DNA from: an uncultured Pelagibacteraceae bacterium
GTDB lineage: Bacteria; Pseudomonadota; Alphaproteobacteria; Pelagibacterales; Pelagibacteraceae
Direction of reading: 5' to 3'
Length of the DNA: 64,000 nt
Assembly (NCBI GenBank): GCA_902555435.1
Contig: CACDRL010000001.1
Span: 3,758 to 67,757, forward strand
In this document: one piece after another, positions 32,559 to 37,553 of the stretch
Layout of the letters: every line of letters begins with the position of its first letter
Position numbering within the stretch: the first letter of the stretch is position 1
Translations under genes and position numbers: made by a program
The notes under the pieces: generated by a model
What the model was told of the DNA's origin: nothing
The model's database searches: none
The model's input: the letters and a program-made list of their open reading frames with translations, nothing else

Positions 32559-33620
32559 TTAAAAACAAACTATGTGATCAATATTAATCGGTCTTTTAAT
32601 TCCAAACTTTTCATCAGCTTCATGTTGGTGTTCATGATGAGAATGAACAAAAACTGGTATTAATAATTCGCTATTAGTTTTCAAAGTATAAATAAAGTTT
32701 GTTCCTCTAAATTTTCTATCAACTACTTCAAGTTTTAGATTGCTTTTGTCATCATGCTCTAGGTCTTCTGGCTGTAATAATAATTGTACATTAGAACCTT
32801 TAGGATAATGCTTAATAAAATTTCCTTTAATTGTTCCAAGATCTTCATTTTCTAATGAATTTTCACCTGTTACTTTTGCTGGAATTAAAATTCCACGATT
32901 TAAAAAATTTACTACTTCGACAGAATTTGGAAAGTGATAAACGTTGTATGGGTCATCAAACTGTTTAATTTGACTATCTAATATAATTGCACATTTGGTG
33001 CCAAGATAAAAAGCTTCGTAAGAGTCGTGTGTAACGATTATTGTAGTAATCTTTAATTTACTTAAAATTTTTTTTAATTTTACTTGAATTTCCTCTTTAA
33101 AGCTTTGATCAACATTGGATAGTGGTTCATCTAATAGTAAAAGGTCAGGCTGTGTTAATAGTGATCTCGCAAGTGAAGCTCTTTGCGCCTCTCCTGCGCT
33201 AATTTCATGTGGATATTTTGGTAATATTTTTTCTATATCAAGGAAATCTATTATTTCTTTAAAACTAAGCTTTTTCTTTCTTTTACCTTTGTTTCTCTCA
33301 GCACCTAATAAAATATTTTTTTCAACTGTGTAATGAGGAAACAAACTGTTGTCCTGAAAAGCTAAAGATATGTTTCTATCTTCAGGTTCTACGTTTTGAT
33401 CTTTAGATGATAGCAATTTACCATTTAGTTTAATTGAACCTTTATCAATTTTTTCTAAACCAGCTATAGTTCTAAGTATTGTAGTTTTGCCAATTCCAGA
33501 TGGACCAAGAATACACAAAGTATCCCCTTCGTTTTCAATCGAAAAAGATGCATTTTTGACTTTAATCTTTCCGCCTATAGTGAAATCAACATTTTTAATC
33601 TCTAAAAAACTATCGCTCAT
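32559..33620 (-). CDS. fbpC: Fe(III) ABC transporter ATP-binding subunit
   Basis: GPSGIGKT, ISAGEAQR, LLLLDEP, HD..EA. Confidence 0.9.
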   Translation of the reverse strand: MSDSFLEIKNVDFTIGGKIKVKNASFSIENEGDTLCILGPSGIGKTTILRTIAGLEKIDKGSIKLNGKLLSSKDQNVEPEDRNISLAFQDNSLFPHYTVEKNILLGAERNKGKRKKKLSFKEIIDFLDIEKILPKYPHEISAGEAQRASLARSLLTQPDLLLLDEPLSNVDQSFKEEIQVKLKKILSKLKITTIIVTHDSYEAFYLGTKCAIILDSQIKQFDDPYNVYHFPNSVEVVNFLNRGILIPAKVTGENSLENEDLGTIKGNFIKHYPKGSNVQLLLQPEDLEHDDKSNLKLEVVDRKFRGTNFIYTLKTNSELLIPVFVHSHHEHQHEADEKFGIKRPINIDHIVCF

Positions 33621-35238
33621 TTTCCCTCAATATATATTTAGATGTAAGCATTATAAATAGAGTTGCAATCAAAATTAAAAATAGTGAAGGAACAGCTGCG
33701 GCTTCTAATAAGTCCTCTGAAGCAGATATATAAGCAGTTGTTGCAAATGTTTCAAAATTAAAAGGTCTTAAAATCAAAGTGATTGGCAGCTCTCTTATTA
33801 TTTCTAAAGAAATTAGTATTCCAACAAATAAAAGAGAATTTCTTAAGAAAGGTACATGAATATTCATAAAAGTTTTCTTTTTCGAATAACCAAGTAAATA
33901 TGAACTTTCATCAACAGAAATATTAATTTTTTCATAACCAGATTTTATTCCATTAAAAGCCAAAGAATAGAATCTTACAAAATAAACTAGAACAAGTCCT
34001 AGAATAGAACCAATAAATATTTTTTTAATGGATAAAAAACCAAGTGCTTTTACAACATTGTCATCAAACCAAGCAATAAAAGTTATAAATGCCACTGCTA
34101 AAATTACTCCTGGAATTGCATAACCAGAAATTGACAAAGTAGATAAAGCATTTAAGGTTTTATTTTTAGAAACTCTATTTCCATAATTAGAAATTAAAGA
34201 AAAAATTATTAAAACTAAGCTTGATAGTAACACCAAGTACAGAGTGTTTAATGTTAAAGTTATTACTGGAATATCAAAAAGATTTTCTGGAAATTTTAAG
34301 GTCCAGTAAAGCATTTGACTTAGTGGAAATAAAAAACTTAAGAAAAAAACTAAGAAACAAATTGAGAATGCAAAAAATGCTTTAGTTCCTGATAGTTGAA
34401 TTTTTTCTTTTTGTTTAAATCCTCCTTTAGTATTGGCGTGATACCTTGCTTTCTTTCTAGATAAATTTTCTAAAATAAATATTGCAAAAATAAATAATAG
34501 AAGAAAAAAAGATATCCTGTTTGAGAAAGCTAAGTCATCGAATGTTATCCAAGAATTATAAATACCTGTTGTTAAAGTATTTATAGAAAAAAAATCAACT
34601 GCACCAAATTCAGCTAAAGTTTCCATTGCAACTAGAGAAAGACCTGCAACAATTGCTGGTCTTGCAGCTGGTAAAATTAATGAATAGAAGGATTTTGCTT
34701 TTGAAAATCCTAAATTTCTACCTAGATCAATTAAATTTTGAGATTGATACAAGAATGATGCTCTTGAAAGAATATAAACATAAGCAAATAAGGAAAAAGA
34801 TAACGAAAGTAAAGCACCTACTAAACCATCAAATTTTGGAATATTTTGATTATAATTTGCCTCTCCAAATAGATTTTTCAATAAAGAATACAAAGTACCA
34901 TAATTCTCAAAGAAAGCTGTCAATGAATATGCATAAATATAAGGTGGTACAGCAAAAGATAAGATAAGAGCCCATTTAAAAAAATCACTAAAAGGAAATT
35001 TGTAAAAAGAAACTAGGTAAGCAGTAGTAGTTCCAATTAAAAAAGTTAAAACTAAAACGCAAATAAGTAAAATTAATGAATTTAAAATGTACTCAAACAA
35101 AAAGGTATCTTTTAATATTTGATAATAATTTGAAGTATCCTCAAAAAAACTAGTAAATACAGTAACGATTGGTATAGCTACAAAGATTGATACTAATAAC
35201 GAACTTAAAAACCAAAAATTAATTTTTTTTAAATACAC
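33610..35238 (-). CDS. fbpB: Fe(III) ABC transporter permease
   Basis: Two permease repeats, E.L..FG, ELP.T..LRP.NF.T; GTG start. Confidence 0.92.
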   Translation of the reverse strand: MYLKKINFWFLSSLLVSIFVAIPIVTVFTSFFEDTSNYYQILKDTFLFEYILNSLILLICVLVLTFLIGTTTAYLVSFYKFPFSDFFKWALILSFAVPPYIYAYSLTAFFENYGTLYSLLKNLFGEANYNQNIPKFDGLVGALLSLSFSLFAYVYILSRASFLYQSQNLIDLGRNLGFSKAKSFYSLILPAARPAIVAGLSLVAMETLAEFGAVDFFSINTLTTGIYNSWITFDDLAFSNRISFFLLLFIFAIFILENLSRKKARYHANTKGGFKQKEKIQLSGTKAFFAFSICFLVFFLSFLFPLSQMLYWTLKFPENLFDIPVITLTLNTLYLVLLSSLVLIIFSLISNYGNRVSKNKTLNALSTLSISGYAIPGVILAVAFITFIAWFDDNVVKALGFLSIKKIFIGSILGLVLVYFVRFYSLAFNGIKSGYEKINISVDESSYLLGYSKKKTFMNIHVPFLRNSLLFVGILISLEIIRELPITLILRPFNFETFATTAYISASEDLLEAAAVPSLFLILIATLFIMLTSKYILRENER

Positions 35239-35255
35239 TTTTACCCTTTTGTTTC

Positions 35256-35304
35256 AGTGAACATAATCAATAGTAGGGTAAATAACTATTGAGTTATGTT
35301 CACT
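35256..35304 (-). other. Long intercistronic RNA hairpin (19-bp stem, one bulge, 10-nt loop)
   Basis: AGTGAACATAA/TTATGTTCACT and TCAATAGT/ACTATTGA inverted repeats. Confidence 0.8.
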
Positions 35305-35313
35305 TTTTGAAAA

Positions 35314-35508
35314 TCAACTTTTTAAATCAAAAACATTAATGACATGATCAATATCATTTTTTTTGATTTCAGATAATTTTCTATTATTTATCTTTCTTTT
35401 AATTCTTTCACACTCTGACGAACACGGTTCACATGTTATCTGACCCTCAAGTGAATCGTCTTTTACAGAAGAATTATATAAATTAAAATCAAATAAATTT
35501 TTTTTCAC
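35314..35508 (-). CDS. Small protein with CxxCxxxC motif inside the iron operon
   Basis: 64 aa, GTG start with GGGGA SD 7 nt after the fbpA stop; CEPCSSEC. Confidence 0.6.
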   Translation of the reverse strand: MKKNLFDFNLYNSSVKDDSLEGQITCEPCSSECERIKRKINNRKLSEIKKNDIDHVINVFDLKS

Positions 35509-35515
35509 TTTCCCC

Positions 35516-36544
35516 TTACTTCCATCCAGCAGAAGTCATTACCTCTAATGCTGCTGCTTGATTTTTTCCGTAACTTGAAACTTTAGTTGTTAGATCTTGT
35601 TTAAAATCTAATCCTAAATTGTTCACTACTAATGGATTTGGTGATACCCCTGCAATCATCGGAAACTCAAAAGTATTATTTGTGAAATGTTCCTGAGCCT
35701 CTGGTGATAGCAAGAAGTCTACAAGTGCAATAGCATTTGCCTTATTAGGAGCTCCTTTAATTAAAGCGGCACAACTAATATTCATGTGCGTTCCTCTGTC
35801 ATTTTGATTAGGAAAAAATGCCTTAACTTTTTTAGCAGCTGCTTGTTGTTCTGCTCCTTTATTACCAGATAGCATAAGTGCTAGGTAATAAGTGTTTGCT
35901 ACAGCAATATCAGCTTCTCCAGCTGCAACTGCCATAATTTGAGCTCTGTCGTTTCCTTTTGGTGTTCTTGCCATATTTGCAACAACTCCTTTAGACCATT
36001 CAGCAGCAGCTTTCTTTCCATTATTTTCAATTAATGATGCTACAAGAGATTTGTTATAAATGTTGCTTGATTTTCTAATTACTAATCTGCCTTTCCATTT
36101 TGGATCGGCTAGACCTTCATATGTAAGACCTGATAATTCAGCACCACTTACTCTTTCTGGTGAATAGTAGATTATTCTTGCTCTCTTAGCTACTCCTACC
36201 CAGTGTGTAGTTCTAAAATTTTTTGGAACAGAAGATTTAATTGTTGGAGAAACCAAACCACTTTGAGTCATTCCTTTAGCTTTAAAAGCTCCACATCTTC
36301 CAGCATCAGCAGTGATATAAAGATCAGCAGAAGAGTCTGAGCCCTCTTCAATCATTCTTTTTTCTAATGCACCAGCCTTTCCATTAATCAGATTTACTTT
36401 AATTCCAGTTTTGTCGGTAAATTTGCTATAAAGCTCATTGTCTGCTTTGTAATGTCTTGCATTGAAGATATTTACTTCATTTGCAATTGCAAAAGATGAG
36501 ACTATTAAAGAAACAAATAAACTTATTATTGTTACTTTTTTCAT
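35516..36544 (-). CDS. fbpA: Fe(III) ABC transporter substrate-binding protein (FutA/SfuC type)
   Basis: ARHY..D..LY..F...TGIKVN, ITADAG, YN.SLVAS, ANTYY Tyr ligands. Confidence 0.93.
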   Translation of the reverse strand: MKKVTIISLFVSLIVSSFAIANEVNIFNARHYKADNELYSKFTDKTGIKVNLINGKAGALEKRMIEEGSDSSADLYITADAGRCGAFKAKGMTQSGLVSPTIKSSVPKNFRTTHWVGVAKRARIIYYSPERVSGAELSGLTYEGLADPKWKGRLVIRKSSNIYNKSLVASLIENNGKKAAAEWSKGVVANMARTPKGNDRAQIMAVAAGEADIAVANTYYLALMLSGNKGAEQQAAAKKVKAFFPNQNDRGTHMNISCAALIKGAPNKANAIALVDFLLSPEAQEHFTNNTFEFPMIAGVSPNPLVVNNLGLDFKQDLTTKVSSYGKNQAAALEVMTSAGWK

Positions 36545-36572
36545 TGTATCCTTTTCTTTACCCTATTTGATT

Positions 36573-36609
36573 TGCGAATGAGAATTATTCTCAATGCGAA
36601 TGATTATCA
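36573..36609. promoter_or_regulatory. Tandem Fur-type 7-1-7 boxes upstream of the iron operon
   Basis: TGAGAAT-T-ATTCTCA (36579-36593, perfect) and TGCGAAT-G-ATTATCA (36595-36609). Confidence 0.8.
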
Positions 36610-36665
36610 ATCGCATATTTTGTCTCAGAAAACAAGGGCTTTTTTTATATTATTTATGGGTAGGG

Positions 36666-37553
36666 TTATTTCCAGTCGCCGATTTTGCTAAATAAAAAGT
36701 TTCTAAAAGCTTGGACTCTCGCTGTATTTTTTAAAGATTGTGGGTAAACAAAGTGAGCTTCTGTTATAGGTCCTTCTACTTTTGGAAGTACTTTGATTAC
36801 GTTGTTTGAATTTGATACTAAATATTCTGGAAGTGCTGCCAATCCTACACCAGACTCAACTGCTAACAAAAGTCCCATTACACTATTTACTTTCATAATT
36901 GTTTTTCTCTTTTTACCATCGTGCATACCAATTTTTAAAGCCCAATCTGGGTTATAAACTGGAGAAGGAGCACCTTTTCCAAAAGAAATAAATTTATGTT
37001 TATTTAAATCGTTAATTGTTTTTGGCATTCCATTTTTTTCTAAGTACTTATTTGATCCATAAATATAGTACTTAATATCAACTAATTTTTTCTGAATATA
37101 ATTAAGCTGTTTCGGTCTTCTCATAAAAATTCCTATATCAGCTTGCCTTGTACTTAAATCTAATTCTTTGTCATCAAAAACTAACTCTATCTCAATCTCT
37201 GGATTAAGTCCCATAAATTCTTGAATTCTAGGTGTTAACCAGTGAGTACCAAAACTTCTTACTGTTGTTATGGTTAATTTTCCTGTTGGTTTATTCTTTT
37301 GATCACCTAAAGATGTTTCGACTTCTTTAAGTTTACTAATTACTTCATGGGCTGTTTTAAAAACATATTCACCATTTTCTGTAAGAGTTAATCCTCGTGC
37401 ATGCCTTTCAAAGAGTTGTACTTTTAAATCTTGCTCTAAAGATTGTATCTGTCTACTAATAGCCGATTGGCTTAGGTTTAAATTTACAGTAGCATTTGTG
37501 AAACTTCCAGCTTCCGCTACTGCATGAAAAATTTTTAATTTATCCCAATCCAT
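36666..37553 (-). CDS. LysR-family transcriptional regulator (VtlR/LsrB-like N-terminus)
   Basis: MDWDKLKIFHAVAEAGSFT...LSQSAISRQI..LE...LFERHARGL HTH. Confidence 0.92.
   Translation of the reverse strand: MDWDKLKIFHAVAEAGSFTNATVNLNLSQSAISRQIQSLEQDLKVQLFERHARGLTLTENGEYVFKTAHEVISKLKEVETSLGDQKNKPTGKLTITTVRSFGTHWLTPRIQEFMGLNPEIEIELVFDDKELDLSTRQADIGIFMRRPKQLNYIQKKLVDIKYYIYGSNKYLEKNGMPKTINDLNKHKFISFGKGAPSPVYNPDWALKIGMHDGKKRKTIMKVNSVMGLLLAVESGVGLAALPEYLVSNSNNVIKVLPKVEGPITEAHFVYPQSLKNTARVQAFRNFLFSKIGDWK

Follow-up and report, generated by a model that had tools for sequence, protein, structure and literature searches.

The potC RNA motif (Rfam RF01751) was described by Weinberg et al. in 2010 as a marine motif located upstream of transporter or peroxiredoxin genes (PMC2864571). 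In six rows of its published flanked alignment, an open reading frame ending in ...RKLS[DE][IL]... stops about 20 nt before the hairpin, and the rows run on into either fbpB or a peroxiredoxin gene (PMC2864571). In a search of the literature after this report, no paper on the motif was found.

Other described elements can be compared with the hairpin reported here. In the malE-malF REP and the Rhodobacter puf hairpins, as in our locus, a stable stem stands between the gene of a binding protein needed in excess and the membrane components. However, REP-type elements occur in repeated copies across a genome and lack a conserved loop, whereas our hairpin is single-copy per genome and its loop is conserved. 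In anti-Shine-Dalgarno elements, such as riboswitch platforms and ROSE/fourU thermometers, a pyrimidine-rich complement of the Shine-Dalgarno (SD) sequence could mask the ribosome-binding site (RBS) in cis, as may be the case here. In contrast to these elements, the anti-SD sequence of our locus is carried by the terminal loop of a separate stable hairpin, so that masking would need a pseudoknot-like contact, and no ligand or temperature dependence is known for this hairpin. A tentative analogy is offered by the IRE/IRP and bacterial aconitase-IRE-like systems, where an iron-related mRNA likewise carries a hairpin whose loop is conserved and whose stem has a bulged C; the IRE loop CAGUGN is, however, unrelated to the loop of our hairpin.

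The Fe(III)-binding protein SfuC/FbpA is used in the field as a marker of iron limitation, and post-transcriptional control, proposed without any known RNA element, has been invoked for its iron response (PMC2864753).

The iron-uptake operon and its hairpin

The DNA analyzed (hereafter the window) is a stretch of 64,000 nt from an uncultured Pelagibacteraceae bacterium. On its minus strand, an iron-uptake operon is arranged in the order leader, fbpA, 64-aa open reading frame (ORF), hairpin, fbpB, fbpC. The features concerned are the following.

36666-37553, minus: LysR-type regulator gene (ORF and Pfam)
36574-36614, minus: two overlapping Fur-box-like palindromes in the operator/promoter region of the operon (sequence)
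36557-36565, minus: leader copy UAGGGUAAA, with the second Fur box 9 nt before it and the fbpA SD AAGGA downstream of it
35516-36544, minus: fbpA/sfuC-like gene of a periplasmic Fe(III)-binding protein (ORF and Pfam)
35314-35508, minus: small ORF of 64 aa with CxxCxxxC and a K/R-rich helix (ORF list)
35256-35304, minus: potC-type stem-loop with a 10-nt loop on a stem of 11 bp and 8 bp, which are separated by a bulged C at 35293 (sequence, fold and Rfam)
35304-35285, 35284-35275 and 35274-35256, minus: 5' arm, loop UAUUUACCCU and 3' arm of this stem-loop (sequence)
35275-35282, minus: loop octamer UUUACCCU, with a core UUACCC that is near-invariant family-wide
35248-35255, minus: linker GAAACAAA, 8 nt, from hairpin to RBS (sequence)
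35240-35247, minus: AGGGUAAA, the fbpB SD region and 8-bp complement of the loop (sequence)
33610-35238, minus: gene of an fbpB-like Fe(III) ABC permease of 542 aa, starting with GTG (ORF and Pfam BPD_transp_1)
32559-33620, minus: fbpC-like ABC ATPase gene (ORF and Pfam)

The stem contains 19 bp and is continuous save for the one bulged C. A 9-nt spacer (35313-35305) separates it from the TGA of the small ORF; on the other side, the linker is followed by AGGGUAAA, a single A and the GTG start codon of fbpB (35238-35236). The isolated hairpin folds at -20.6 kcal/mol, and a 106-nt region around this site at -22 kcal/mol (z = -3.5). An earlier note on this DNA had transcribed the hairpin exactly as it is found in the sequence; the coordinates that it gave (35239-35313) take in the 9-nt spacer, the stem beginning at 35304 and not at 35313.

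A terminator scan gave no intrinsic terminator signature at the hairpin, whose 3' flank is GAAACAAAAGGG. The possibility of an intrinsic terminator was rejected for both strands, the sense stem having no U-tract after it and the scan being empty.

The palindromes at 36574-36614 were read as putative Fur boxes, on the assumption that the known consensus GATAATGATAATCATTATC applies. A near-identical pair was seen in the fbpA leaders of all 76 related loci examined across the genus.

Relationship to potC RNA

In a permissive scan, RF01751 matched positions 35251-35309 over the full model (1-70) with 29.2 bits (E = 2.6e-4), which is under the gathering threshold of 44 bits. The consensus loop of this family, cUUUACCCUUU, contains the octamer of the window loop, and the basal helix GUGAACAUAA/UUAUGUUCAC fits the potC base GUGCYCA.../...UGRGCAC. 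The GUG...CAC base and a terminal loop with UUUACCC are thus common to both RNAs, which are both marine and SAR11-type. The genomic context of potC was also found, since a transporter permease gene, fbpB, lies downstream of the window hairpin. Furthermore, the ORF that ends before the motif in the six published alignment rows mentioned above is a homologue of our 64-aa ORF, so that, in those rows as in the window, the same small ORF precedes the hairpin and a transporter permease or peroxiredoxin gene follows it (PMC2864571).

Differences were observed as well. The asymmetric internal loop of potC with its pyrimidine-rich 5' side (UCUCC) is absent from the window stem and is replaced by the continuous 19-bp helix with one bulge. 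In addition, the RBS that follows the window hairpin and the leader of the operon each contain a complement of the loop, which most members of the family lack. By position, loop, base helix and covariation, the hairpin belongs to the family; against this stand the Rfam score and the missing internal loop. On these sequence criteria, the window hairpin is a divergent, lineage-specific and simplified variant of the potC motif, and is not new in kind.

When other loci were scored with the same model, a sister subtype (L340) reached 32 bits and a type B locus (L332; types are defined below) 53.9 bits. Six genomes of the same genus scored above the threshold, at 48-95 bits, and all six had the order fbpA, small ORF, hairpin. 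A second potC copy in the genome of the window was searched for and none was convincing; only four matches of 14-22 bits were obtained, in a genome-wide Rfam search whose pre-filter also missed the match of the window itself. The Rfam potC model thus misses whole subfamilies, that of the window included, and the orphan motif can now be placed inside a Fur-controlled iron-uptake operon of Pelagibacter (SAR11).

Junction types in Pelagibacter

An alignment of the small protein was used for the survey and yielded 76 Pelagibacter loci. In all 76, a hairpin was present 9-25 nt past the stop codon of the small ORF, and its loop contained UUACCC save for a few variants (one UUAUCC and three CUUACCC). 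The earlier note had set conservation of the loop as a check on its proposal, and this core proved near-invariant. Genome G265, flagged as unpublished, was left out. The junctions were sorted into the types listed here.

Type A (the window): continuous stem with fbpB immediately after it; complement (A)AGGGUAA, 8-10 nt past the stem
Type A2: different stem sequence; complement AAGGGUAAU
Type B: fbpB AUG 5 nt past the stem, without SD; no complement, the base helix extends over the start
Type C / C' (the majority): peroxiredoxin-like gene next; no complement
Type D: fbpB about 80 nt downstream; no complement
Type E: small ORF missing, lower stem unlike that of type A but apical AGUUUAUUACCCUACU near-identical to it; fbpB begins AUGGGUAAUAAA, and a complement of up to 10 nt overlaps the start codon in 6 of 8 sequences
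Type F: variant of the small ORF, followed by hairpins that lack the UUACCC loop; no complement
Type G: fbpA stop immediately next to the fbpB start; hairpin absent

In most Pelagibacter genomes (L015-L060 and L067-L087), the gene between hairpin and fbpB encodes a Prx5-like peroxiredoxin, which means that the iron operon carries an oxidative-stress gene. The form MIEGFKIPK... starts with an AUG about 10 nt after the hairpin, without SD, and the form MIEGKKCSN... about 65 nt downstream of it. In the C' genomes L343-L353, a terminator-like hairpin (AACUUCCCUUGG-UAAC-...GGGAAGUU, then UCUU) sits between the peroxiredoxin gene and fbpB, about 30-60 nt before the latter, and is followed by the RBS AAGGUAAU. 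Type F (L270, L274, L331, L333, L338 and L358) has a similar, GGUGUCCAC-type base with different loops, some of which are anti-SD-like (UCUCCUCC, GUCUCCUUA); the fbpB RBS in this type is UAAGGCGGA.

The hairpins were aligned as 49 distinct sequences, that of the window and 48 others from Pelagibacter, and the window hairpin fitted in. Compensatory double changes were seen for 12 of the 14 consensus pairs, and the loop columns were the best conserved part of the alignment. This distribution bears on the possibility that the hairpin is solely an intercistronic stabilizer or processing barrier against 3' exonucleases, of the REP type found in malE-malF, whose loop has no translational action. Such a barrier would look like what is found here, a stem of high stability, without a terminator signature, that separates the highly expressed gene of a binding protein from a permease gene. 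In HTCC1062, a strain outside the hairpin comparison made here, induction under iron limitation also drops along the operon (sfuC 16x, sfuB 10x, sfuA 5x; PMC2864753). A barrier, however, needs no conserved loop, yet conservation is highest in the loop and the stems are free to covary, and the conserved complementary sites described below would be left unexplained. As the sole role of the hairpin, it is thus improbable in our judgement; as an additional role, it is compatible with the explanation that we consider best.

Complementarity between the loop and the fbpB start site

As proposed in the earlier note, the loop was found to be complementary over 8 bp to the fbpB RBS, AGGGUAAA, which lies 8 nt past the stem. 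For the sequence AGGGTAAA, 6 occurrences were counted in the window where 2.6 would be expected, and its copies include the RBS (35247-35240), the leader (36564-36557) and, as the reverse complement, the loop. The duplex between loop and fbpB start was calculated at -10.0 kcal/mol and ranked 4th among 1352 crude start regions of the genome to which the window belongs; GGGTAA is present in the RBS zone of 4 of these 1352 starts. Duplex energies were used because counting the longest complement (Watson-Crick and GU pairs) is too permissive in AU-rich sequence.

Next, type A loci were collected from metagenomes with a probe that consisted of the 5' arm only, which gave 80 loci. Every hairpin with fbpB next to it carried GGGUAA; the exceptions were L229, in which another sequence follows the hairpin, and one contig that ends early. 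At the fbpB RBS, GGGUAA was invariant in 37 of 37 distinct type A sequences, the potential loop-RBS helix being 7-11 bp long, and the linker varied in sequence while its length stayed at 8-10 nt.

Since MAFFT misregistered the GGG columns, pair counts were made on anchored sequences, and only in-register pairs were formally counted. The base 5' of UUACCC and the base 3' of GGGUAA (columns 23 and 67) formed C-G in 10 sequences, U-A in 9 and U·G in 5, and were unpaired in 12. The covariation analysis suggested in the earlier note was thus answered in part: this one extra loop-RBS pair covaries, and the remaining ones are invariant in type A. Because the sequences are related and a third of them are unpaired at this position, the statistics are weak, and the signal appears real but modest. 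In L048, a C-to-U change in the loop leaves a G·U pair with the RBS.

Complementarity was also found beyond type A. Type E shares the apical loop, and in 6 of its 8 sequences the fbpB AUG is overlapped by GGGUAAUAA, which allows up to 10 bp; type A2 (L078, L086 and L334) has a different stem with a complementarity of 7-8 bp. Types A, A2 and E are not independent of each other, as they probably share a common ancestry, with a near-identical apical 16-mer.

One may ask whether this complementarity is a coincidence without function of its own. The genome is AT-rich, many hairpins were screened, and AU-only complements of 7-8 nt turned up often in control junctions. The match of the window, however, ranks 4th of 1352 by energy and is kept in 37 distinct sequences with variable flanks, and the same architecture recurs in type E and in a second genus (g2, see below). 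The complementarity of the loop to the fbpB start exceeds chance, and we regard pure coincidence as very improbable.

The few other starts with (A)GGGUAAA in the genome of the window raise the question of action in trans, in which the hairpin would be released as a small RNA and its loop would act on RBSs bearing AGGGUAAA, in an iron-sparing manner similar to RyhB/PrrF. These starts include those of an IscR/Rrf2-like regulator and of cytochrome oxidase subunit II, both iron-related (G000:C9:4085, L088, and G000:C7:31114, L089), which are the only clear genes with such an RBS besides fbpB. Their motifs are, however, kept only in the closest relatives and not genus-wide, and both genes were therefore rejected as trans targets. 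Furthermore, the hairpin has no terminator or U-tail and no sign of processing was seen, so that release as a small RNA can be considered highly doubtful. A match to PrrF, on the other strand, reached 18.6 bits against a threshold of 90 bits. Neither the pairing in trans that the earlier note had offered as an option nor its ideas of a processed RNA or of feedback gained from the analysis: the candidate targets of the former are not conserved, and nothing was found that points to processing or feedback.

Loops without a complement and the small ORF

GGGUAA was searched for as an exact match over a range of -1400 to +700 relative to the small ORF, and was absent at these sites in the 66 loci that are neither type A nor type A2. 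Types B, C, C' and D, which comprise more than 60 loci and have no complement, nonetheless conserve the UUACCC loop equally well. RBS pairing can therefore not explain conservation of the loop family-wide, and the loop must have another, or an additional, function. For the loops of types C, C' and D, a cis partner was sought by this exact search and by a duplex-energy scan and rejected, as they gave only a weak 6-bp site within the small-ORF coding region; this site corresponds to the LEGQ codons, is missing in C' and is accounted for by conservation of the protein.

In addition, L327 has lost both small ORF and hairpin and still has AAGGGUAAAU before fbpB, where its sister L326 has AGGGCAAA, and C' genomes have AAGGUAAU before fbpB. 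From L327 and the C' genomes, it appears that the GGGUAA motif may be an ancestral SD sequence of fbpB.

The small ORF precedes the potC hairpin in nearly all types and is missing from type E. Its product of 60-64 aa has the motif KKNLF...C[ED]PCxxEC...IN[NG]RK. Among the 76 loci in which the ORF is conserved, the variable columns are distributed 11/7/21 over the three codon positions, and 47% of codon differences are synonymous. By this coding-type pattern of substitution, the small ORF is a real gene. Searches of Pfam and NCBIfam with the protein returned no match, and an AF2 model showed two helices with low confidence (pLDDT 66).

These observations are pertinent to a second explanation of the loop, namely that it is a recognition site for a protein (for example the upstream microprotein, in an IRE/IRP- or MS2-like manner) or for another RNA, the RBS and leader complements being inherited by-products of an SD of the type AAGG(G/U)UAA. 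It would account for a loop that stays invariant in more than 60 loci without complement and for the RBS that L327 keeps without a hairpin. It is also in line with the position of the hairpin after the small ORF, in 76 of 76 loci and in the six published alignment rows, and with the frequency of AAGGUAA-type RBSs in these genomes. On the other hand, GGGUAA itself is rare at RBSs genome-wide (4 of 1352) and is invariant while the adjoining bases vary. As to the microprotein, five type E genomes that are 99% complete keep loop and complement and contain no homologue of it anywhere, although the positive controls were found in 5 of 5. Type F keeps a small-ORF variant next to hairpins without the UUACCC loop, and no RNA-binding fold could be recognized in the AF2 model. 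The microprotein as an obligatory partner of the loop was thus ruled out by types E and F, at least where, as in type E, the protein does not exist. Recognition by another partner, as a whole, seems to us somewhat unlikely.

A second copy of the motif in the operon leader

The earlier note had also pointed to a match between the loop and the fbpA leader. It was located at 36557-36565, about 13-21 nt upstream of the fbpA AUG, and is conserved alongside the fbpB RBS site in type A. Downstream of the Fur boxes, the sequence (A/U)AGGGUAAAG is present in most type A loci (it is missing in L028, L039 and L054) and in 5 of 5 type E loci that have a leader, whereas none of the other types has it. When leader and start-site motifs were scored together in 80 genome loci, 11 had both, 61 neither, 7 the start-site motif only and 1 the leader motif only.

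A tree of fbpA from 77 loci, which is a quick tree and not a careful maximum-likelihood one, was discordant with hairpin type and forced at least three changes. Thus, L057 falls in the C' clade of fbpA although its leader, hairpin and RBS are those of type A, and the sister of L028 is a type D locus. This discordance indicates recombination within the operon. That the leader and start-site motifs travel together across such recombination is suggestive and hints at a functional link between them.

Possible modes of action

The explanation that we prefer, tentatively and with slightly less than even confidence, is a role of the hairpin in cis, in which pairing of the loop with the fbpB RBS would tune translation of the permease. 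After transcription, the exposed loop core UUACCC would pair with the GGGUAA of the RBS, 8-10 nt past the stem. This pairing would compete with the 30S subunit and keep the permease low relative to the abundant FbpA, and the stable stem would act as well as a 3' barrier that favors the upstream fbpA segment. The hairpin would then have a dual role, as an intercistronic stabilizer whose loop, in types A, A2 and E, may also mask fbpB initiation. The identical sequence in the leader may compete for the same loop. If true, such pairing would explain transporter subunit stoichiometry in a genome almost devoid of regulators; in any case, it provides a concrete hypothesis for potC in at least one lineage, with defined compensatory mutations.

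The geometry of such a contact is demanding. An A-form helix rises by about 2.8 Å per base pair, and a nucleotide chain extends by at most 6-7 Å per residue. With 18-19 bp to be crossed, the linker of 8-10 nt has to bridge roughly 53 Å, as far as such a chain can reach when fully stretched. A simple H-type pseudoknot across this stem would therefore be strained and is sterically marginal. As 8 nt barely span 19 bp, pairing would probably require bending at the bulged pyrimidine, which is conserved, or transient opening of the lower stem, and the steric objection that the earlier note had raised against its own proposal stands. Its broader idea, that the hairpin is more than a stabilizer and possibly forms a pseudoknot, is favored by the conserved sites with their varying spacers and by the echo in type E and genus g2, and is weakened by the loops kept without complement and by the RBS without hairpin in L327.

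The leader copy allows a more elaborate scheme to be drawn, an intramolecular toggle with three sites in which the loop UUUACCCU would alternate between AGGGUAAAG of the leader, beside the fbpA RBS, and AGGGUAAA at the fbpB RBS, 1.3 kb apart on one polycistronic mRNA. Initiating ribosomes are expected to cover part of the leader copy, which would couple fbpA initiation to masking of fbpB. Ribosome occupancy at the fbpA start would then set the masking of the permease start, and hence the ratio of binding protein to permease, with no protein regulator. We judge this scheme improbable; if it is true, a motif that has been an orphan for 16 years would gain a first mechanistic role.

An anti-SD hairpin in another SAR11 genus

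Finally, the spacer between fbpA and fbpB of genus g2 was found to contain an unrelated hairpin of 14 bp, whose loop NCUCCU is the anti-SD sequence. Located about 60-10 nt before the fbpB start, it directly precedes the SD GGAGGAG and the UUG start codon of fbpB, and its stem covaries among L284, L285, L288, L290 and L294. An alternative fold in which CCUCCUCC pairs with GGAGGAGG was only 2.4 kcal/mol above the minimum free energy, a gap small enough that a two-state translational switch may exist there.

When the loops were combined with the start sites in an energy matrix, each loop of types A, A2, E and g2 gave -10 to -13 kcal/mol with its own start site (the diagonal), and the values for types B, D and g5 were near zero. 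The g2 loop does not match the type A sites, nor do type A loops match the g2 sites. This parallel anti-SD hairpin supports the idea of pairing and, together with the matches in types A, A2 and E, makes complementarity between a hairpin loop and the fbpB start a recurring design of SAR11 at this junction.
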